This document shows, piece by piece, positions 1-29,490 of a DNA stretch of 64,000 nucleotides. The notes under the pieces were generated by a model that saw nothing but the letters and a program-made list of their open reading frames with translations, searched no databases and was not told the DNA's origin. The position numbers and the translations under genes are program-made. The first letter of the stretch is position 1. The number at the start of each line of letters is the position of its first letter. Source of the DNA: a virus. The stretch spans positions 27,528-91,527 of IMG/VR virus record IMGVR_UViG_3300027769_000020, one strand, 5' to 3'.

Positions 1-29
1 AATGGTCCCCGCAGGGGAAATAGTGTGCA

Positions 30-173
30 TCATTTAACACACACTATTTTAAACAGACCTTGAGTATATCCATTACTCATAAGTTGTTTCTTTTTCCAAA
101 GGGCTAATGCCTTAGAAGGAAACACAAAGCTCTCTATGAGTCTTGTGTTATTATAGTATTCTAATCTATACAT
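30..173 (-). CDS. small hypothetical early protein (47 aa, MYRLEYYNN...)
   Basis: Track ORF 30..212; ATG at 173 lies just downstream of the repeated motif at 189-205, whereas the longer start overlaps that motif. Confidence 0.65.
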   Translation of the reverse strand: MYRLEYYNNTRLIESFVFPSKALALWKKKQLMSNGYTQGLFKIVCVK

Positions 174-188
174 GGTATTATAATTAAT

Positions 189-205
189 AACAGTTATAAA
201 ATGGT
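189..205 (-). promoter_or_regulatory. repeated motif ACCATYTTATAACTGTT (minus strand), putative phage early promoter
   Basis: Near-identical copies at 189-205, 574-590 and 707-723; variants at 357-373 and 950-966; partial copy at 1-6; each lies upstream of a minus-strand unit. Confidence 0.65.
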
Positions 206-210
206 AAGAC

Positions 211-242
211 AAAAAAAGAGAGAGAGTATTAAACTCTCTCTC
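211..242 (-). terminator. intrinsic terminator
   Basis: GAGAGAGAGT/ACTCTCTCTC stem with A7 run at 211-217 (U tail on minus strand). Confidence 0.75.
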
Positions 243-356
243 AATGTTGCTGGCTAAAGCCTGTTCCGGTACTTACATCTCCAAAGCTATAAGGAGAACG
301 CCTCTGACTTGAAACATAATGAGTATTGATAGAGATCATTAGTTCACTCTATCCAT

Positions 357-373
357 AATAGTTAAAAAATGGA
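357..373 (-). promoter_or_regulatory. variant copy of the early motif
   Basis: AATAGTTAAAAAATGGA vs AACAGTTATAAAATGGT. Confidence 0.5.
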
Positions 374-404
374 TTAAGACAAAGAGAGATAACCTCTCCT
401 TTCA

Positions 405-551
405 TCAGAAAGGGAGGTCATCTTCATCAATATCATATGTATAATTCTCAAGGCTATCCATAGCCTCAAGAGTTATACGCATCATATCATTGTAATAGTC
501 TTGCTCCTCTTGGAGCATGATATTAATATCATTGAATTCAGTATCACGCAT
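405..551 (-). CDS. 48-aa acidic peptide with SSB-like C-terminal tail (...DIDEDDLPF)
   Basis: Hand translation MRDTEFNDINIMLQEEQDYYNDMMRITLEAMDSLENYTYDIDEDDLPF*; below the ORF-track cutoff; sits downstream of motif 574-590. Confidence 0.75.
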   Translation of the reverse strand: MRDTEFNDINIMLQEEQDYYNDMMRITLEAMDSLENYTYDIDEDDLPF

Positions 552-573
552 AATATATAATTTTAAAGTTAAT

Positions 574-590
574 AACAGTTATAAGATGGT
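574..590 (-). promoter_or_regulatory. copy of the early motif
   Basis: AACAGTTATAAGATGGT. Confidence 0.65.
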
Positions 591-595
591 TAAAT

Positions 596-626
596 AAAAA
601 AGAGAAACACCCGAAGGTATCTCTCT
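596..626 (-). terminator. intrinsic terminator with UUCG loop
   Basis: Minus strand reads AGAGAGATACC-TTCG-GGTGTTTCTCT followed by a T run. Confidence 0.7.
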
Positions 627-706
627 TGCTTTCTCCTGATCTTGCCAAAGCTAAGCTCAAATGATGTGTGTTTACATAACATACACATCATTCATTATAA
701 TTTATA

Positions 707-723
707 AACAGTTATAAGATGGT
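707..723 (-). promoter_or_regulatory. copy of the early motif
   Basis: AACAGTTATAAGATGGT, identical to 574-590. Confidence 0.65.
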
Positions 724-727
724 AAAG

Positions 728-760
728 AAAAAAACATAAGAGCCTAAGCTCTTATTTTTT
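728..760. terminator. intrinsic terminator (possibly bidirectional)
   Basis: ATAAGAGC-CTAA-GCTCTTAT with an A run before and a T run after. Confidence 0.7.
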
Positions 761-928
761 GTACTTTTCTGAATCAGGTGCGGCTAATACACCCATTAAT
801 AAGAAGAATGTTAAACCTATGAACACAGCAGCCAGTGTTGTCATGTGTTCAAGTATGCTCTCTGTAGCTGCATAGCCAAGCATGATTGTACATGCAATCA
901 TAATCTTGTAGTGTAAAGAATATTTCAT
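752..928 (-). CDS. 58-aa small membrane protein (two hydrophobic segments)
   Basis: Hand translation MKYSLHYKIMIACTIMLGYAATESILEHMTTLAAVFIGLTFFLLMGVLAAPDSEKYKK*; downstream of motif 950-966. Confidence 0.7.
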   Translation of the reverse strand: MKYSLHYKIMIACTIMLGYAATESILEHMTTLAAVFIGLTFFLLMGVLAAPDSEKYKK

Positions 929-949
929 AGTGTGTAATTTTTAATTAAA

Positions 950-966
950 TTAAGTTAGAAAATGGT
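950..966 (-). promoter_or_regulatory. variant copy of the early motif
   Basis: TTAAGTTAGAAAATGGT. Confidence 0.55.
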
Positions 967-1136
967 TGCCTTGCGCAGCAAGCATGGGGGGTACCACCTC
1001 TGGCTTCAGGGGGTGGGGGTGTTGTAGTAGGGGTCCATCACAAAGCCCTACATATATAAATTCCCCTAGCCGTAAGTTCATCACACCTGGGGTGAAAATA
1101 ACCCGCAAAAGTTATTGTGTATTGTACCAATGTTAT

Positions 1137-1144
1137 TATATTTG
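1137..1144 (+). promoter_or_regulatory. Bacteroidota-type -7 promoter box TATATTTG
   Basis: Matches TAnnTTTG; the same 8-mer is intergenic at 2057, 3971, 7082, 15218 and 39793. Confidence 0.6.
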
Positions 1145-1178
1145 TACTAATTAGTTTTTAAATTTTATTGTTATCATT

Positions 1179-1208
1179 AATCCTCAGATGTATGTCTGGG
1201 GATTTTTG
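1179..1208 (+). terminator. intrinsic terminator
   Basis: AATCCTCAGA/TCTGGGGATT stem followed by Ts. Confidence 0.6.
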
Positions 1209-1214
1209 TTTAAG

Positions 1215-1408
1215 ATATTACTCCTGTGTTCAAGTAGCACAGGTCCAGTACCAGTTAAGCATCCCATAAGATCTGCTTGTTGGTCTTCTCTGCTCAGGAA
1301 AGTGGAATTGATTTATAGGTGTAAACGCGTTACCTCTATAAGCAACCATATAACTGCAGCAACCCCAAGTAAGTTTCTCTGATCAGGAAATACTGCTTGG
1401 GTTTTTTT
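1215..1408 (+). ncRNA. putative structured non-coding RNA
   Basis: Several stems (CCTGTG/CACAGG; ACCAG..AAGCA/TGCTT..TTGGT; CCCAAG/CTTGGG plus T7); 16-nt repeat TTCTCTGMTCAGGAAA at 1286 and 1375; no credible ORF. Confidence 0.45.
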
Positions 1409-4101: not shown

Positions 4102-4941
4102 ATGGATATTTTAAATATTATAAGCTGGATTAAAAATAAACGCTATGTAACAAGTGTTGACCCAGCAACAACACTAATGCCTATTGGATTAAAAGATGAC
4201 CGTAGAGATGATGGTTATTTAGCAGGAGTTATTACAGTAGAAAATTTAGCTGCACAGTTAGGTGGAAATAAATTAGTTGATGATACTAGAGAAGTTGTAT
4301 TAACTGATAATGCAGGATATGCAGAATTAACATTCAATACTGGTTCTGCAATAATTCAAACTTCAGGAGTTAATGCTGATTTAACAATTAGTACTTTAAG
4401 TGGAGATGATATTATTCTTGAATCTGGGGATGATATTAGATTACAAGGTGATGTTGGTCTTTTTGATGATGAAACTGAAGGTGGAGATATAAATATCTAT
4501 GCTGGAAATGGTTCTGATGGTAATACAGCTAATGCAGGATCTGGTGGAGATATTAGAATTGAAGCAGGTGATGCTGGTAACAGTATATCAGGTTCTCAAG
4601 GAGAAGGTGGTTTTGTAACTATTCAAGCTGGTTATACTTCAACAACTGGTTTATCAGGAGGAGATATTAGTCTTTATCCAGGTAACAGTATAGATGGTAA
4701 ACATGGTGATGTTATTATTCAAGGTAACTTTACATGGACATTTTCTACAAGTAATGCAATACTTTTATTTCCTGCAGTAACTTTAGCTACATTACCAAGT
4801 GCAGCTGGAGTACCTGGAGCAAGAGCTATGATTGCTGATTCTAATGTACCAGCACCAGGAAACTTTGGAGCAATTGCTGCAACAGGAGGTTCTGCTGTAG
4901 TTCCAGTATTTTCAGATGGTGTAAATTGGTTAATAGGTTAA
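4102..4941 (+). CDS. virion fibre/spike protein (paralog 1, shared N-terminal anchor)
   Basis: MDILN.ISW N-terminus; GGDI.I.AG glycine repeats; C-terminal VPVFSDGVNWLIG. Confidence 0.7.
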   Translation: MDILNIISWIKNKRYVTSVDPATTLMPIGLKDDRRDDGYLAGVITVENLAAQLGGNKLVDDTREVVLTDNAGYAELTFNTGSAIIQTSGVNADLTISTLSGDDIILESGDDIRLQGDVGLFDDETEGGDINIYAGNGSDGNTANAGSGGDIRIEAGDAGNSISGSQGEGGFVTIQAGYTSTTGLSGGDISLYPGNSIDGKHGDVIIQGNFTWTFSTSNAILLFPAVTLATLPSAAGVPGARAMIADSNVPAPGNFGAIAATGGSAVVPVFSDGVNWLIG

Positions 4942-23845: not shown

Positions 23846-25096
23846 ATGAATACTGATGAGCAAACAACACAAGATAACACTACAGTATCACAAGTAGATG
23901 TGAACTTAGATGAGTTATTTGGAATGCCTGGTGCGGATAACGTGATGCTACCAGAAGAGGAAGAGGAGAAAAAAACCCTTTTTACTAAAGAAGAAAAAAC
24001 TGATTTTGACTTTTTAGATAGCAAAACAGGAGTAACTAGTAAACAAGTAACACCTGAAGAAACTATTACTAAAGAAGAAGTTGAAGAGACAATTGCTGAA
24101 TTGGATAACTTAATTAGTCAAGAAGAGGATGCTGGTAATAAAGGTAGACCAAAAGTTGACAAGTCTGGGTTATATGACTTAGCTTCTAAAATGATTGAGG
24201 AAGGTACACTATTTGGATTTGATGATGATAAACCATTAGAGGAGTACACTACTAAAGACTTTAGAGAATTGTTTGAAGCTAACTTTCAGGAGAAAGAAAG
24301 AAAGATTAAAGAGGATGTGCCAAAAGAATTCTTTAATGCTTTACCTGATGAGTTAAAAGCTGCAGCTAAATATGTTGCTGATGGTGGACAAGACTTAAAA
24401 GGTTTATTCAGAACTCTTGCTCAAGTAGAAGAAGTATTTGAATTAGATCCAGAGGATGAGAATCATCAAGCTGAGATTGCAAGACAATACTTATATGCTA
24501 CTAACTTTGGTTCACCAGAGGAGATTGAGGCAGAGATTGAGGACTGGGCTGATGTAGATAAACTTGAGCAAAAAGCAAAACAGTTTAAACCAAAATTAGA
24601 CAGAATGCAGGAAGAGATTTTATCTAGAAAACTTGCAGAACAGGAAAGTAAAAAAGAGCAACAAATACAAGCTGCTAAACAATACACGGATAATGTGTAT
24701 AATGTATTATCAGTAGGGGAACTTGATGGTGTCAAGCTTGACAAAAAAGTTCAGAATATGTTATATAGTGGATTAGTGCAACCATCTTATCCATCTATAT
24801 CAGGTAAACCTACAAACTTATTAGGACACCTATTAGAGAAGTATCAGTTTGTAGAACCAAGACATGACCTTATTGCTGAAGCATTATGGTTACTTGCAGA
24901 TCCAGATGGTTATAAAAATAAGATTAAAGACCAAGGTACTAAAGCTGCAACTGAGAAAACAGTAAGAATGTTGAAAACTGAAGAGGCTAAAAAATTATCT
25001 TCATCATCATCAACAGAAGAAAAACAAGCTCCTAGAAAAACAACAGGTAATACTATTTCTAGAAGCACACCAAATAATATGTTTAAAAGATTTTAA
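23846..25096 (+). CDS. acidic scaffold-like protein
   Basis: Acidic, helical, located between portal and MCP. Confidence 0.6.
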   Translation: MNTDEQTTQDNTTVSQVDVNLDELFGMPGADNVMLPEEEEEKKTLFTKEEKTDFDFLDSKTGVTSKQVTPEETITKEEVEETIAELDNLISQEEDAGNKGRPKVDKSGLYDLASKMIEEGTLFGFDDDKPLEEYTTKDFRELFEANFQEKERKIKEDVPKEFFNALPDELKAAAKYVADGGQDLKGLFRTLAQVEEVFELDPEDENHQAEIARQYLYATNFGSPEEIEAEIEDWADVDKLEQKAKQFKPKLDRMQEEILSRKLAEQESKKEQQIQAAKQYTDNVYNVLSVGELDGVKLDKKVQNMLYSGLVQPSYPSISGKPTNLLGHLLEKYQFVEPRHDLIAEALWLLADPDGYKNKIKDQGTKAATEKTVRMLKTEEAKKLSSSSSTEEKQAPRKTTGNTISRSTPNNMFKRF

Positions 25097-25126
25097 TAAA
25101 CAATATAAACAAATAAACAAATACAA

Positions 25127-26743
25127 ATGGCAACTCCAGTATTAAATAATGGTATATTCCTGCGTGATACGGCATACAATGCTAGTTCACATGTGGATTC
25201 ATACCATTTACAAAACATGCTAAAAGATGCAGAACCAATGGATTTAGGTCCAGTAGACTTATGGGCTATGGCTCAAAAAGTTGAAATGCCTTTATACCAG
25301 TTGTCTTCTTTTGGTGGAAAAAATGTTATCAATGTGGATAACGCAAGAGGTGAGTACAAATGGCAAACTCCAGTATCTATTGATCTACCTTACATTGTAG
25401 AAGATATTGAACCAGGTAATACTGCTAAAGGTATTGAAGGAACTACTTTCAAAATCAAGTTGAATAAACGTGAGTTTGGACATGGTGATATCATTACTTA
25501 TGACAAGTATAATGGTGTTGAGATGTACATTACTGCTGATGATATCTTACCTATTGGTGATGGTTTCATCTATACAGTACAGTTAGTTAACAATGATAAC
25601 TATAAGTACATTGATAATGCTTACTTGGCTAATGGTACTAAAGTATTCCGTAAAGGTTCTGCTAGAGGTGAGTATGGTGAGAGATTCTCTGACATCCAAA
25701 CTAACACAGGATTCCGTGAGTACTACAACTACGTTGGTGGTGCTGAAGCACACGTTCATTACTCTATCTCTTCTAGAGCAGATTTAATGATTAAAGGTGG
25801 TATGAATGCAGATGGTACAGTTCCTGTAACTGAAATCTGGAGATCACACTTAAAAGGATTAGATCCATCTATTTCATCTTTAGATGATATGGTTAAAGTA
25901 ATGGGTAAAGACTCAGTTAAAAAAGCATTTGATAATGGTGATTTATCAAGAACTTTCTTAACTAATATGGAGGCTGCACACTTAACTAAGATTGCATCTG
26001 ATATTGAGACTTACTTAATGTGGGGTCATGGTGGTAGAGTACGTCAAGACGGACCAGATGATGTAAGATTATCTGTAGGTTTATGGAAACAGTTAGATAA
26101 CTCTTTCAAACGTATCTATAACAAAAACAACTTTAACTTAGACTTATTCAGAGGAGAGTTATACAACTTCTTCAATGGTAAGGTTGAGTTCCAAGGACCA
26201 GATCCTAAACGTCAACTTGTTGTACAAACAGGTATGGGTGGTATGAGAATGGTTAATGAAGCTATTAAACAAGAAGCTATTTCTTCAGGTTTATTAATTC
26301 AAGCTGCTGATATCGGTGCTATCACTGGTAAAGGTATGGACTTAAACTTTGGATTTGCTTATACATCTTACGTTATTCCATTCTTGGCTAATGTTAAGTT
26401 TGTATTGAACCCAGCATTTGACAATGTTCATACTAATGATATTGAGAACCCAATCATTGATGGTTTCCCATTATCTTCTTACTCATTCATTATTTTTGAT
26501 ATCACAGATAATACTAATGACAACATTTACATGTTGAAATTATCTTGGGATAATCAATTGAAATGGTGGTACCAAAATGGAACAATGGACTACATGGGTA
26601 GATCTCAAGGATTCCAGTCTTCAGGACAATTCAACGGTTACCGTGTAATGATGTCTCAAACAATGCCTGCTATTTGGGTTAAAGATCCAACTAAAGTATT
26701 GAAAATTGTTATGAGAAACCCAATTACAGGTGGATCATTCTAA
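25127..26743 (+). CDS. major capsid protein
   Basis: 538 aa, strong codon bias, position after scaffold, followed by a terminator. Confidence 0.85.
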   Translation: MATPVLNNGIFLRDTAYNASSHVDSYHLQNMLKDAEPMDLGPVDLWAMAQKVEMPLYQLSSFGGKNVINVDNARGEYKWQTPVSIDLPYIVEDIEPGNTAKGIEGTTFKIKLNKREFGHGDIITYDKYNGVEMYITADDILPIGDGFIYTVQLVNNDNYKYIDNAYLANGTKVFRKGSARGEYGERFSDIQTNTGFREYYNYVGGAEAHVHYSISSRADLMIKGGMNADGTVPVTEIWRSHLKGLDPSISSLDDMVKVMGKDSVKKAFDNGDLSRTFLTNMEAAHLTKIASDIETYLMWGHGGRVRQDGPDDVRLSVGLWKQLDNSFKRIYNKNNFNLDLFRGELYNFFNGKVEFQGPDPKRQLVVQTGMGGMRMVNEAIKQEAISSGLLIQAADIGAITGKGMDLNFGFAYTSYVIPFLANVKFVLNPAFDNVHTNDIENPIIDGFPLSSYSFIIFDITDNTNDNIYMLKLSWDNQLKWWYQNGTMDYMGRSQGFQSSGQFNGYRVMMSQTMPAIWVKDPTKVLKIVMRNPITGGSF

Positions 26744-26754
26744 TATGTCAAAGC

Positions 26755-26786
26755 AAAAAAAGGAGGGGCCAGTCTCCTCCTTTTTT
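26755..26786 (+). terminator. intrinsic (bidirectional) terminator after MCP
   Basis: A7-GGAGG...CCTCC-T6. Confidence 0.75.
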
Positions 26787-26826
26787 ATTATATTTACAAT
26801 TATAAACATTTTAAAACCAACATAAA

Positions 26827-27837
26827 ATGGAATTTACACACGTAGAAGTATTTAATACTAACAAGAGCAACAAGATCTCTATCAAGCCTTACTTTGACAA
26901 CTCAATGTCAAATATGGGATTAGAAAATTATGGTCAATCATTATTTGATGGAGTTAAACATTTTGAACAACTAGCATGTCTAGAGCAAAATGGAGTAATA
27001 AGATATGTAACAGGGTTAAATGAATTTGCACCTGAGATTAAATTATTACCAACAGAACAAAGAGAAGCAAAAGTAAAACAGATTAGAATTGCTGTTGCTG
27101 AATTAGAAAGAGAGTTAGCAGCTAACATATTAGATGTTGAGAGCCCAACTTTCTGGAATGATGTTAAACTATTAAGACCAGACAATAAAGAATTCTGGAA
27201 TAAGATTAACATGTCATGTGGTAATGAACCAGTGTATTTAGACCCTACTAATCCATATGATAGAATTAAATTATATGCTGTTGAAGCAGGTGGATTTTCA
27301 CTTGTATCAAGAAGCTATGATGATGCTAGATCAAAAGCAGTACCACCAAAATTTTACTTAGATAAAGTAACTGAAACAAGTGGTATCAAAACTGAATACA
27401 AAAAACTTAAAAATAAAGCTCTTGCTGAGTTACAAAAATTGTTTGATAAAAACAGTACTAAATTATTTTACATTGCTAAGTCAGTAGATACAGCAAGTGT
27501 ACAGTATAAAAAACATACACCAAATGATGTTATTTATGATAACATGGATAGACATATCAATGGTGAAGGTACAGAAGGTAATAAAGAAAGAGCAGCAAAA
27601 GGATTCTTAGATGCAGCAGCTTTAGATATGGAAACATTAAAAATTAAAGCAATTGTAAAAGATTCCATATTTTTTAAGTATATTATTAATAAGTCAGATG
27701 GTTATATCTATCATGCTAAATCAAATAGCTTGTTAGGTAGAAATGTTTCTGATGTAATTGAGTTCTTGAAAAACCCTTTAAATGAGGATATTTTAAAAGA
27801 CTTAAACACACAAGTTGAAAAAGTGTGGAATATGTAA
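26827..27837 (+). CDS. conserved virion-module protein following MCP
   Basis: 336-aa ORF; synteny with the crAss-like capsid module. Confidence 0.65.
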   Translation: MEFTHVEVFNTNKSNKISIKPYFDNSMSNMGLENYGQSLFDGVKHFEQLACLEQNGVIRYVTGLNEFAPEIKLLPTEQREAKVKQIRIAVAELERELAANILDVESPTFWNDVKLLRPDNKEFWNKINMSCGNEPVYLDPTNPYDRIKLYAVEAGGFSLVSRSYDDARSKAVPPKFYLDKVTETSGIKTEYKKLKNKALAELQKLFDKNSTKLFYIAKSVDTASVQYKKHTPNDVIYDNMDRHINGEGTEGNKERAAKGFLDAAALDMETLKIKAIVKDSIFFKYIINKSDGYIYHAKSNSLLGRNVSDVIEFLKNPLNEDILKDLNTQVEKVWNM

Positions 27838-27846
27838 ACAACTTCA

Positions 27847-27880
27847 GGGTATACTAGTAACCGCTAGTATACTCTTTTTT
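27847..27880 (+). terminator. intrinsic terminator
   Basis: GGGTATACTAG/CTAGTATACTC stem plus T6. Confidence 0.75.
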
Positions 27881-27892
27881 AAATTATAAGTT

Positions 27893-28063
27893 ATGGCAAA
27901 TGCAAAAGTAAATGTTCAAAAAAATGCAACAGGTAGAGTAGGTGGTACTAATGCTCCTGTATATGCATTAAAATCTGCATCAGGTAAATCATGCGGTAAA
28001 GTTAATAAACCTCAAGCTGCACCTAAAATGAAAATGGGTGGAAGCAAAGGTAAGAAATGTTAA
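27893..28063 (+). CDS. small basic protein (56 aa) with MKMGG motif
   Basis: Hand translation MANAKVNVQKNATGRVGG...KMKMGGSKGKKC*. Confidence 0.7.
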   Translation: MANAKVNVQKNATGRVGGTNAPVYALKSASGKSCGKVNKPQAAPKMKMGGSKGKKC

Positions 28064-28089
28064 TTTAATAAACTTTTAAATTAATAATC

Positions 28090-29490
28090 ATGGCAAGTAA
28101 AATAAATCCAAAAGGGATATTCAAGTCTAACTCAAGATCTAAAGGCCCAAATCCAAAAGGTATAAATCCAAAAGGAGTATATAAAGCACCAGCTAAACCT
28201 AGAGTTAATCCAAAAGGAATTAATCCTACAGGTATTGGACCTAATAAAGATGGAATTAATCCTGGAGGAATTAAGAAACCAGTTACTCAATCTAGTACAC
28301 CAAGAACTAGAGCTGGAGTATCTAAAGGAAATACACCAGGTACAGCTGCAAAATATGCTCAAAAAAAACCTATTACACAAACTCAATCTACAAGAACTAG
28401 AGCAGGTGTAACAAAAGGAAATGCTCCTGGTAAAGCTGCAGGTATGAGATCTCAAAAGTTATCTAATCAAAAAATGACTTTATCTCAATTAGAAAATGCT
28501 GCATCTAAAAGATATAAACCATTAGGTGCAGATGAGTTATCTAAAACTAGTAAAACTGTTACTGAAGGTGCTAATAAACTTTTAAAAAAGACAACTGAAA
28601 AAGCTAAAGCTAGCGGTATGGATTTACCTAAAAGTGGAAGAAAAAATGTAACAGCACCTAAAGCTTTTTTTAAAACTGATTTGACAAGATTTAAAAAAGT
28701 AGGTAAAAGAGCAATAATTGGTACTGCTATTGCATTAGCAGGAAAAGCTTTATATGATAAAGTATCAGAAAAAAATAAAGCTACTGCACTTGCTAAAACT
28801 AAAGATGACGCTGCTAAAAAAGCTAAAGATGATGCAGCAAAAAAAGCTAAAGCAGACGCTGCTAAAAATCAAGCTGCTAAAAGTCAGGCTTTAAAAAATG
28901 AACTTGCTAAAAAAGAAGCTGCTAAAAAAGACACAGTTAAAAAATATGCAGGAGTAAAGGACAAATGGGGAAGATCAGCTTCAGATAAATGGTTTGGATT
29001 TGATCCTAAAACTAAAGCGTTTACAACAGTGGATTTACCTAAAAAAACAGAAGTTAAAAAGTCTACTAATACAGTAAAACCAAAACCTGTTACTCCTAAA
29101 CCTGCTCAAGTATCAGAAACTCCTAAAGTTGATAATACAACAGCAAGTACTACAAAAGAAGAAGTAGGAACAATTCCATTAAAAACTGTACCAACAGTTG
29201 AAGCACCAAAAGCTATTTTGTCTCCGGCACCTTCAAAAACTACATCAACTTCTCCAGCTTCCTCAACGCCAAGTTCTAGTACTATTAAAAAACCAGAACC
29301 TAAAGGTGGTTTAATTAATAAGATTAGAGGTGCTGTTAATGAAAGTAGAGAAAGAAGAGTTGGTAGAGCTTTTGGTAGAGGTGATACTGAAAGAGCTGCT
29401 GAACTTGAAGCAAAAATAAAAAGAACAGAAAGTAAAATGTATATGAAAAAAGGTGGTGTTGTTAAAAAGACAAAACCTAAAAAGAAATAG
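28090..29490 (+). CDS. large Lys-rich low-complexity protein
   Basis: INPKGI repeats, KDDAAKKA repeats, one hydrophobic segment, C-terminal MKKGG..KPKKK. Confidence 0.75.
   Translation: MASKINPKGIFKSNSRSKGPNPKGINPKGVYKAPAKPRVNPKGINPTGIGPNKDGINPGGIKKPVTQSSTPRTRAGVSKGNTPGTAAKYAQKKPITQTQSTRTRAGVTKGNAPGKAAGMRSQKLSNQKMTLSQLENAASKRYKPLGADELSKTSKTVTEGANKLLKKTTEKAKASGMDLPKSGRKNVTAPKAFFKTDLTRFKKVGKRAIIGTAIALAGKALYDKVSEKNKATALAKTKDDAAKKAKDDAAKKAKADAAKNQAAKSQALKNELAKKEAAKKDTVKKYAGVKDKWGRSASDKWFGFDPKTKAFTTVDLPKKTEVKKSTNTVKPKPVTPKPAQVSETPKVDNTTASTTKEEVGTIPLKTVPTVEAPKAILSPAPSKTTSTSPASSTPSSSTIKKPEPKGGLINKIRGAVNESRERRVGRAFGRGDTERAAELEAKIKRTESKMYMKKGGVVKKTKPKKK

Follow-up and report, generated by a model that had tools for sequence, protein, structure and literature searches.

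Twelve minus-strand cassettes with a putative phage-specific promoter motif form a mosaic array in an uncultured crAss-like phage

Few groups of phages are as abundant as the crAss-like phages. To our knowledge, all of them carry a giant virion RNA polymerase, which is related to the eukaryotic RNAi polymerases. Among crAss-like phages, only phi14:2 has been studied; there the enzyme, gp66 (PDB 6VR4), transcribes the early genes and is resistant to rifampicin, and no upstream motif common to the early transcripts of the virion polymerase was found (10.1101/2020.03.07.982082). For another virion two-barrel polymerase, gp96 of P23-45, a conserved AT-rich pre-early motif has been described (10.1101/2022.12.01.518664; PMC10770324). 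Both gp66 and the virion RNA polymerase of N4 favour denatured DNA (PMC13434306 and references therein). Repeated elements of a composite terminator/promoter type are known from T4-like phages as PeSLs (promoter-early stem-loops), and homologous recombination at the repeat has been proposed as their mechanism (PMC2839356, PMC4122927).

The locus described here lies at the beginning of the window, the 64,000-nt stretch of DNA that was analysed, which corresponds to positions 27528-91527 of a 91.5 kb, 76% complete contig (G000) of an uncultured crAss-like phage. Positions 1-966 of the window hold five and a half units of a 12-unit array, with all units on the minus strand, that occupies contig positions 25340-28493. 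The initial annotation had described six motif sites at 1-966, spaced about 130-245 nt apart. All six are present on the minus strand, three as exact matches and the others in variant or partial form, and the measured spacing is 133-243 nt. It had also proposed a motif search upstream of the window, where the array was found to run on for 2.2 kb, to its full 12 units. The features in window coordinates are as follows.

Before the window, minus strand: 123-aa ORF, putatively driven by motif 6
1..6, minus strand: final 6 nt (plus-strand view) of motif 6, ACCATTTTATAACTATT; the whole site is at contig 27517-27533, starting 10 nt before the window
7..17, template (plus) strand: mini-hairpin CCCC-GCA-GGGG, directly upstream of motif 6
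18-49, minus strand: hairpin overlapping the cassette 5 stop codon
30..173, minus strand: cassette 5 ORF, 47 aa, family C, kept in G006, L102 and L103
189..205, minus strand: motif 5, ACCATTTTATAACTGTT, exact match
206..356, minus strand: cassette 4 body, including a 32-aa ORF at 241-339
218..242, minus strand: cassette 4 intrinsic terminator, hairpin and T-run (L101 13745-13769)
357..373, minus strand: motif 4, TCCATTTTTTAACTATT, 3 mismatches
393-413, minus strand: terminator-like hairpin overlapping the cassette 3 stop codon
405..551, minus strand: cassette 3 ORF, 48-aa acidic peptide with C-terminal DIDEDDLPF, family D
574..590, minus strand: motif 3, ACCATCTTATAACTGTT, exact match
591..706, minus strand: cassette 2 body with an internal hairpin and no credible ORF
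600-627, minus strand: strong cassette 2 terminator
707..723, minus strand: motif 2, ACCATCTTATAACTGTT, exact match
736..755, minus strand: cassette 1 terminator, hairpin and T-run (L101 14263-14282)
752..928, minus strand: cassette 1 ORF, 58-aa hydrophobic protein, family B
950..966, minus strand: motif 1, variant ACCATTTTCTAACTTAA, first motif of the array
970..982, template strand: mini-hairpin CTTGC-GCA-GCAAG, upstream of motif 1 at a distance of 3 nt
986..1040: GC-rich conserved block heading the array, in array sense ...GGAGGTGGTACCCCC...

ORFs were looked for and not found in unit 2 and probably unit 4; cassette 4 is probably a small RNA, because the frame of its 32-aa ORF is not preserved in the relative L104. 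No gene precedes the mini-hairpin at 970..982, which is conserved in relatives with varying loops. The GC-rich block is retained even in lineages with other cassette motifs, and RNAalifold found almost no covariation in it, so that an RNA structure is unsupported.

Each unit consists of a hairpin with a T-run, the motif ACCATyTTwTAACTrwT(ATTrAT), an AT-rich leader of 15-38 nt and a small ORF or an ORF-less segment. This is the anatomy that had been read from the window, with the leader added between motif and ORF. The minus strand has 12 copies of the motif core, CCATNTTNNAACT, all within 3.15 kb; none is present on the plus strand or anywhere else in the 91.5 kb, while 100 dinucleotide shuffles gave a mean of 0.63 copies and a maximum of 5, and a reversed control gave 0. 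The 17-mer of the initial annotation, allowing up to 3 mismatches, gave 4 matches against 1.5 expected, which alone is not significant. Motifs and cassettes stand in a 1:1 ratio; a motif precedes cassette 1 and no motif follows the last cassette. Each motif lies directly 3′ of the terminator of the preceding unit. Terminator-like sites numbered 18 against 1.8 expected, and a stable hairpin lies directly upstream of 48 of 57 motif sites, compared with 22% of shuffles. In a logo built on 54 sites in 7 arrays, about 23 nt are highly informative, the flanks are uninformative and an ATG follows 15-38 nt downstream of the 17-mer.

Taken together, these sequence patterns give good support to a promoter role for the motif. 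With eleven terminators in succession, transcription would have to re-initiate within the array. We regard it as quite improbable that the motif is instead an operator (for early shut-off or bending) or an RNA processing or translation signal on a read-through transcript. Its distance of 15-38 nt from the start codons is where operators and translational operators sit, and the GC-rich element and mini-hairpin upstream of motif 1 could hold the real start signal. However, a transcribed signal needs read-through of 11 strong terminators, the ORF-less units carry the motif as well, the units share no other promoter-like sequence, and a pure operator would leave 12 units promoterless.

The motif had been described at the outset as unlike the TAnnTTTG box, and the comparison with host-type promoters agrees, since it fits neither the sigma-70 nor the Bacteroidota −33/−7 type. 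A sigma-70/sigma-A reading was dropped because sigma-70-type sites were not enriched (26 versus 27.1 expected) and no TAnnTTTG box was found beside any cassette start or in the cassette leaders. Two TAnnTTTG matches that precede cassette ORFs are over 100 nt away from them, inside the preceding unit. The Bacteroidota primary-sigma promoter (TTTG at −33 and TAnnTTTG at −7) does not apply either, because the leaders have no box and the conserved part is one contiguous block of about 23 nt, without two-box geometry. In the intergenic regions of the plus-strand block of G000, TAnnTTTG occurs 7 times in sense and 0 times in antisense, which is modest evidence for host-type boxes there; the counts in the TerL loci of six relatives (12 versus 5) are too small to carry weight. 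Among 185,579 prokaryote genomes, the 23-nt pattern gave just five scattered single matches and is absent as a class. Because the motif does not fit the sigma-70 or Bacteroidota types, does not occur as a class in bacterial genomes and differs between phage lineages, the sequence comparison supports the view that it is not host-like.

Host RNA polymerase could still read such a motif through an alternative host sigma factor or a small, possibly injected, phage specificity factor, with the gp66-like polymerase transcribing something else. The evidence for promoter function applies equally to this explanation, hairpins with T-runs are the classic terminator signal of bacterial RNA polymerase, the virion-polymerase transcripts of phi14:2 have no shared motif, and lineage-specific motifs could follow a fast-evolving activator or sigma-like protein invisible to Pfam. 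We nevertheless consider it unlikely, given that the motif is a single block of about 23 nt, unlike TTTG/TAnnTTTG or TTGACA/TATAAT, and that it is absent as a class from the prokaryote genomes. In addition, a phage-encoded factor would be inactive at time zero unless packaged in the virion, and a search of the complete relatives with working controls did not find a sigma70_r2 domain, although a divergent sigma-like or activator protein could escape Pfam.

The alternative that we favour, transcription by a virion RNA polymerase, depends on the identity of the phage. Its TerL, portal and MCP match phrog_6681, phrog_6547 and phrog_11589, respectively, and G000 has the conserved crAss gene order. 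The MCP matches gp32 of crAss001 (7qof) with an E-value of 1e-3, and the TerL shares about 25% identity with its counterparts in crAss-like phages of Flavobacterium, Cellulophaga and Bacteroides, indicating a distant relationship. When six large virion proteins were compared with the PDB using phmmer, only the MCP-gp32 match and one chance-level match (0.46) were returned, and tblastn of phi14:2 gp65-67 against G000 gave nothing. The two-barrel polymerase core with its DFDxD motif was not found in the 76% complete contig; the sole result of a D.D.D search was a DFDGD in a 757-aa protein, and this motif is not homologous. In the relatives, giant ORFs of 3470-4324 aa contain a gp66-like core, including SGxDFDxDK, that matches phi14:2 gp66 with E-values of 6e-17 to 2e-12. 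This giant protein is present in G011, G012, G004, G003, G001, G005 and G002. The last ORF of G000, which is truncated, is the gene that precedes the polymerase gene in G001 and G011, and synteny would place the polymerase gene of G000 just beyond the contig end. An array of typed motif and the polymerase gene occur together in only five genomes, two of which are near-identical. G001 and G006 have TerL proteins that are 98.6% identical, and the G001 contig stops before the array.

The homologue in the relatives resembles gp66 in its catalytic region, shares the GxDFDxDK metal-binding motif and occupies the same place in the virion gene block. It differs in lying within a 3470-4324 aa protein and in its low identity, about 25-27% across some 470 residues, with 41% in a shorter stretch of 78 residues. 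Moreover, the early region of phi14:2 is not made of promoter-terminator cassettes and its early transcripts have no common motif, and neither that region nor the early region of FpV4 contained a comparable repeated motif or array. In the complete relatives, no phage-encoded transcription enzyme other than the virion RNA polymerase was detected; a search for a T7-like polymerase, which had no positive control, found none. By elimination, it is plausible that the motif is read by the virion RNA polymerase. Identity between relatives is 37-62% in the polymerase core, compared with 71-98% in the capsid-packaging genes.

P23-45 offers a precedent for such an arrangement. A single-block motif of strong conservation lies upstream of the few earliest genes (putatively so in G000), and the virion carries a two-barrel RNA polymerase of one polypeptide that is fused into a giant structural protein. 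The two phages differ in family, host and motif sequence, and the link between motif and polymerase was made by TSS mapping and ChIP-seq in P23-45, whereas we infer it here. A likeness to N4 is seen at four of the 12 motifs, which are preceded by mini-hairpins with a GC stem and a GNA loop on the template strand (C-GCA-G or C-GTA-G; for N4 see PMC13434306 and references therein). Counting both strands, the 91.5 kb contain only six such mini-hairpins, and four of these abut motifs. In contrast to this phage, the N4 enzyme is T7-like rather than two-barrel, and the main conserved element of G000 is a linear 17-23-mer with the mini-hairpin at a subset of sites. The variable spacing between the mini-hairpin loop centre and the motif, which ranges from 6 to 21 nt across lineages, speaks against a rigid N4-like hairpin geometry.

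The initial annotation had further suggested that related genomes be searched for the motif and their cassettes compared. The same motif and architecture were found in nine related metagenomic phage contigs, representing eight distinct arrays, and sister lineages use other motifs. By TerL, IMG/VR contains at least 598 relatives. In G011, a relative that is 100% complete, the array contains 11 of 12 core matches, and the opposite strand has none. With the same architecture, G003 has nine copies of the motif AAACAGCTCA, L232 has seven copies of AACCCCTGAT, and G002 and G004 have the motif CAGCTT..A.ACT. The variant CAGCTTATAACT was exposed by an otherwise noisy scan of five TerL-chosen relatives with a degenerate 13-mer and two mismatches. 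Scanning IMG/VR with the exact 17-mer gave single matches only, several of them in contigs that are true relatives and whose remaining motif copies are variants. A scan with a 14-mer lacked specificity, and the region had no megablast match among GenBank phages.

Among the relatives, cassette content is mosaic, with the first and last cassettes fixed and the interior shuffled; for example, the order is B-C-A in G006 and B-L-D-M-C-...-A in G000. Family B is the conserved first cassette in every type-i relative with the array start on the contig. Homology breaks coincide with the terminator-motif joint, and 121 of 149 edges of long HSPs lie within 60 nt of a motif, compared with 44% expected, although the edges are not independent events. 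The earlier suggestion that cassettes are swapped through the repeats is thus borne out at the level of sequence, and the exchange of whole cassettes between relatives, with breaks at the terminator-motif joint, is well supported. A segment of 40-60 bp comprising terminator, promoter and leader recurs 12 times and would therefore be a substrate for homologous recombination. A Sak4-like annealase (AAA_24) was found.

In architecture and breakpoints, the array appears to consist of PeSL-like composites. In both systems, a terminator stem-loop and an early promoter (putative in G000) recur together in a plastic region, between small genes most of which are unknown, and insertions, deletions and replacements between relatives have their breakpoints within the composite. 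The likeness does not extend to the promoter type or the phage group: PeSL promoters are early promoters of the host sigma-70 type in T4-like myoviruses, whereas the G000 motif is non-host-like and lineage-variable and resides in a crAss-like, podovirus-type genome. In addition, the units of G000 are contiguous, in a single array whose first and last cassettes are fixed. The repeats might also be non-regulatory, as scars of tandem duplication or of small mobile elements, or as integron-like recombination sites, which we judge very improbable. Cassettes 11 and 12 are paralogues with 59% amino acid identity (family A), and the single genes in one orientation, each beside a hairpin, look integron-like. 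Yet the other cassette ORFs belong to separate families, the motif is conserved where its flanks diverge, it keeps to one strand and to a set place with respect to the ORFs, and an integron core site is not visible by eye. The integron-like reading was rejected because no tyrosine recombinase (PF00589) was found in G000 or in the complete relatives G011, G003, G004 and G012, in a search for which 14 of 14 controls scored positive.

On balance, we lean towards the view that the region consists of 12 autonomous early units with phage-specific promoters, read by a gp66-type polymerase and bounded by recombination joints. The region would form the promoter-proximal end of a leftward gene block, with each unit headed by a promoter of 17-23 nt and transcription probably starting at the motif or just downstream. 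The transcript would have a very short AT-rich leader followed by an ORF of 32-123 aa or a small RNA, and would end at the intrinsic terminator adjoining the next promoter. The likeliest reader is the giant gp66-type (crAss-type, two-barrel) RNA polymerase encoded among the virion genes of the relatives, which presumably enters the cell with the injected DNA; the rightward block may be transcribed by host polymerase at TAnnTTTG-type promoters. Recombination at the joint between co-infecting relatives could insert, delete and reorder whole cassettes in a PeSL-like manner. We infer the promoter activity, early timing and ORF function of the units as well as the identity of the polymerase.

A wider and more tentative proposal, which we hold with less confidence, is that the motif represents the first sequence-defined promoter class for a crAss-type (gp66/QDE-1-like) virion RNA polymerase. 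On this view, a linear element of 17-23 nt would directly follow a DNA hairpin, which is either the previous terminator or a C-GNA-G mini-hairpin dedicated to it. Among close relatives, the specificity of this element would have changed at least four times, together with the fast-evolving polymerase core, and the element would double as a recombination joint for early genes. The question of recognition can be tested in vitro without phage culture, because this clade supplies a well-delimited candidate element, its sister lineages offer natural variants in specificity, and the polymerase genes of relatives are complete. The arrays would also extend PeSL-like modular shuffling of early genes beyond T4-like phages.

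None of the 10 cassette ORFs matched a Pfam or PHROGs family, and family A had no match in the ESM Atlas. On the RNA side, Rfam gave nothing above threshold on the array and junction, and a tRNA search found none. Because the ORFs match no known family, the suggestion that they may be host-takeover factors draws only on their position and size. Across the relatives, the arrays mark a pool of more than 25 uncharacterised small early proteins and RNAs, which are likely to be host-takeover or anti-defence factors and include an acidic peptide that resembles an SSB tail.

The window covers positions 27528-91527 of the source record (G000), an IMG/VR virus contig of 91.5 kb with an estimated completeness of 76% and a GC content of 31%. 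Its genes run leftward, on the minus strand, at contig 1-28500 and rightward from 28500 on, which places the cassette array at the head of the leftward block, adjoining the divergent junction. Leftward genes past the array specify two helicases (SF2 and DnaB-like), a Toprim primase, homing endonucleases and a Sak4-like AAA_24 protein; those of the rightward block specify TerL, portal, MCP and tail proteins, thymidylate synthase and several proteins 750-1770 aa in length. TerL is ~25% identical to the TerLs of Flavobacterium FpV4-type, Cellulophaga and Bacteroides crAss-like phages, and MCP weakly matches crAss001 gp32 (E 1e-3). Judged by sequence, G000 is a distant crAss-like phage.

All motif sites that the initial annotation had placed on the minus strand were confirmed in the sequence, and a search upstream of the window extended the array to 12 sites at contig 25340-28493. 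A weight matrix built from the original sites returned these 12 at a score of ≥14, all on the minus strand, and zero elsewhere on the contig. The core CCATNTTNNAACT matched 12 times in reverse orientation and never forward, and the reversed control had no match; 100 dinucleotide shuffles gave a mean of 0.63 and a maximum of 5. On the minus strand, each unit reads as follows.

Parts of an array unit, in minus-strand order
Part 1: stem-loop with a T-run
Part 2: the motif
Part 3: AT-rich leader without a Shine-Dalgarno sequence
Part 4: ATG opening an ORF of 32-123 aa

Unit 2 has no credible ORF, and the short ORF of unit 4 loses its frame in a relative with 81% identical DNA, so that unit 4 probably yields a small RNA. 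The array has 18 terminator-like sites against 1.8 ± 1.4 expected, whereas sigma-70-like sites were at chance (26 against 27.1). There is one motif per unit, including unit 1, which has no gene upstream, and none beyond the terminator of the last unit; the motif thus belongs to the 5' end of the unit. We predict with good confidence that the cassettes are autonomous promoter-gene-terminator units.

At least 598 TerL relatives are present in IMG/VR, and further arrays were located through two features: the last cassette protein, which is duplicated (family A), and a GC-rich block conserved at the head of the array. Motif, strand and architecture were all the same (type i) in 8 distinct arrays on 9 contigs: L102, L103, L104 (the same array as L241 of record G012), L010 (the array of record G011), L108, G006, L007 and L252. 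Each has 2-15 sites in the part covered. In G011, a 117.9-kb record rated 100% complete, 11 of the 12 core matches lie inside the array, the twelfth lies elsewhere on the same strand, and the opposite strand has 0. The logo from 54 sites in 7 arrays is ACCATyTTwTAACTrwT-ATTrAT with uninformative flanks, and the ATG follows the 17-mer by 15-38 nt. A stable hairpin ends within a few nt of the motif at 48/57 sites, compared with 22% in shuffles.

The initial annotation had set the motif apart from a TAnnTTTG box used on the plus strand, and the rightward-block counts support the plus-strand part of this remark. No TAnnTTTG box adjoins any cassette start in the array, and intergenic boxes of the rightward block, typically TATATTTG, number 7 sense against 0 antisense, which are small numbers (12 against 5 in relatives). 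In a search of one genome for each of 185,579 prokaryote species, the 23-nt pattern had only five scattered single matches. A sigma-70 region-2 domain was not detectable in G000 or the complete relatives, with working positive controls; a search for a T7-like polymerase, run without a positive control, found no match. Two other repeats were seen. GTATATTAT has five plus-strand copies in intergenic regions of the rightward block (for example, before the ORFs at 4102, 7137, 13663, 33058 and 39857), lies downstream of a TATATTTG box in two cases, and could act as a second element regulating middle or late genes; three copies of CTATATAG lie in intergenic regions of the leftward block.

The motif itself changes between lineages. 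G003 (TerL 76% identical) carries AAACAGCTCAtaACTA nine times in the same layout, five after terminators and seven ~25-35 nt ahead of an ATG. G002 and G004 carry (t)ACAGCTTnAnACT with a GCC-TNC-GGC mini-hairpin before it, and L232 carries tAACCCCTGAT seven times, ~20-25 nt ahead of ATGs and downstream of the same GC-rich head block as in other arrays. Types i-iii can be aligned as A.CA..T.ATAACT. Such switching between sister phages would not be expected of a host primary-sigma promoter. In L097 (G002 contig about 42800-45500), structured, GC-rich sequence without ORFs follows five hairpin-plus-CAGCTT..ACT sites. These sites may produce early non-coding RNAs, and they recall the early transcripts from intergenic regions that are reported to be abundant in phi14:2.

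The virion RNA polymerase of phi14:2, gp66, transcribes early genes, is rifampicin-resistant and strongly prefers single-stranded or denatured DNA (10.1101/2020.03.07.982082). The early transcripts that it makes are reported to have no upstream motif in common. As a query, gp66 (NC_021806) had no match in G000 and matched, over the catalytic region, giant ORFs of G011 (4116 aa), G004 (3732 aa) and G001 (3469 aa) with E 6e-17 to 2.5e-12. These carry SG(G/A)DFD(I/V)DK, where gp66 has GSDFDIDKM, and a similar giant ORF is present in G003, G002, G005 and G012.

Coordinates of gp66-like giant ORFs
G011: L111:4736-17086
G001: L110:3716-14125

Across the clade, the gp66-like core lies within a single ORF of 3470-4324 aa, with the catalytic DFDxD at residue ~2317-2438; this ORF is roughly twice the length of gp66, and gp32 of FpV4 (4287 aa) looks analogous to it. 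G000 ends in a truncated ORF whose homologue in G001 and G011 directly precedes the giant ORF, so by gene order the G000 polymerase gene most likely lies just past the contig end. Polymerase-core identity is 37-62% among relatives with TerL identities of 71-98%. The cores of the two type-i genomes G011 and G012 are 96% identical, and the two type-iii genomes are the closest remaining pair (62%), a pattern compatible with enzyme-motif co-evolution at far too few independent points to count as evidence.

No cassette array was found in the early region of phi14:2 or the equivalent region of FpV4, which makes the element clade-specific, and the searched literature has no promoter on record for a crAss-type virion polymerase. 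P23-45 offers a precedent of a virion two-barrel polymerase that uses a conserved single-block motif. We are evenly divided on whether the injected gp66-type polymerase, our candidate reader, reads the cassette motif. The arrays resemble, as a variant, two known kinds of element, PeSL-like composites and virion-polymerase promoter classes, and their main value is that the promoter question for crAss-type polymerases becomes testable.

The whole contig, counting both strands, has six mini-hairpins (C-TNC-G, stem ≥3 bp; C-GNA-G as read on the template strand), and four of the six sit 0-6 nt upstream of motifs 1, 6, 11 and 12. No gene precedes the one before motif 1; relatives keep this hairpin with changed loops and, in two, a changed stem. 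Equivalent mini-hairpins lie ahead of some motifs in G002, G003 and G004. They recall the extruded hairpin promoters of N4, and this likeness, together with the single-strand preference of gp66, would lend appeal to a promoter that combines a hairpin with a linear motif, a speculative reading. Loop centres lie 6 to 21 nt from the motif, a variation that rules out a rigid N4-like geometry.

Cassette ORFs were clustered by BLASTP, and six arrays were mapped.

Cassette order by ORF family (dash, unit without ORF)
G000: B L D M C E N F O K A A
G006: B C (A...)
L102: B D C R S - A A
L103: B C - A A
L104: B - G H I J - W X T U V - A A
L010: B G H I - P F E Q A A

The opening cassette and the final pair are constant, and the mosaic interior varies in content and order (E precedes F in G000, F precedes E in L010). 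G006, whose TerL is 89% identical to that of G000, lacks units 2-4 and 6-10, with joints exactly at the terminator-motif-leader segment. Among between-array BLASTN alignments of ≥150 nt, 121/149 edges, which are not independent events, lie ≤60 nt from a motif start, compared with 44% of randomly placed positions; the edges concentrate at -11 to -30 and +17 to +50. The initial proposal that the repeats could act as recombination points for cassette swapping is supported, and exchange probably takes place at the terminator-motif composite. Non-orthologous units have 40-60 nt around the motif in common at 80-93% identity, and the phage encodes a Sak4-like annealase and no tyrosine recombinase, so that homologous recombination at the repeated composite is the likely mechanism. 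The same process has been proposed for the composite PeSLs of T4-like phages (PMC2839356, PMC4122927), which the arrays resemble in this respect.

Cassette ORFs had no Pfam or PHROG match, and a "host takeover" role is a guess from position. One of them (window 405-551, minus strand) encodes a very acidic 48-aa peptide ending in DIDEDDLPF, similar to the C-terminal tail of bacterial SSB; a possible role is that of a decoy for host proteins that interact with SSB. The first cassette ORF of L232, an unrelated lineage, ends similarly (...EEDDDLPF). The last two cassettes (contig 25006-25715, before the window) encode paralogous family A proteins of 96-98 aa, 59% identical and without a family or Atlas match. 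This pair is retained in every relative with the array end on its contig, and has the longest leaders (37-38 nt) and dedicated mini-hairpins.

The GC-rich head block (window 986-1040), just upstream of the first cassette, reads ...GTGGACCC...CCCCCNCCCC...GGAGGTGGTACCCCC in array sense and has four G-runs on the plus strand. It also occurs in L096, L102-L104, L010, L232 and L235, kept despite differing cassette motifs; the block has almost no covariation, and RNA structure therefore cannot be claimed. Beyond it, on the plus strand of window 1136-1400, a short hairpin terminator (1179-1204) comes after a TAtaTTTG box. Next is a second structured segment, closed by a long hairpin with a T-run (about 1352-1400); conservation of this hairpin in G001, G006 and L102 includes compensatory changes. 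The probable product of this stretch of the divergent junction is a small RNA transcribed by the host polymerase.
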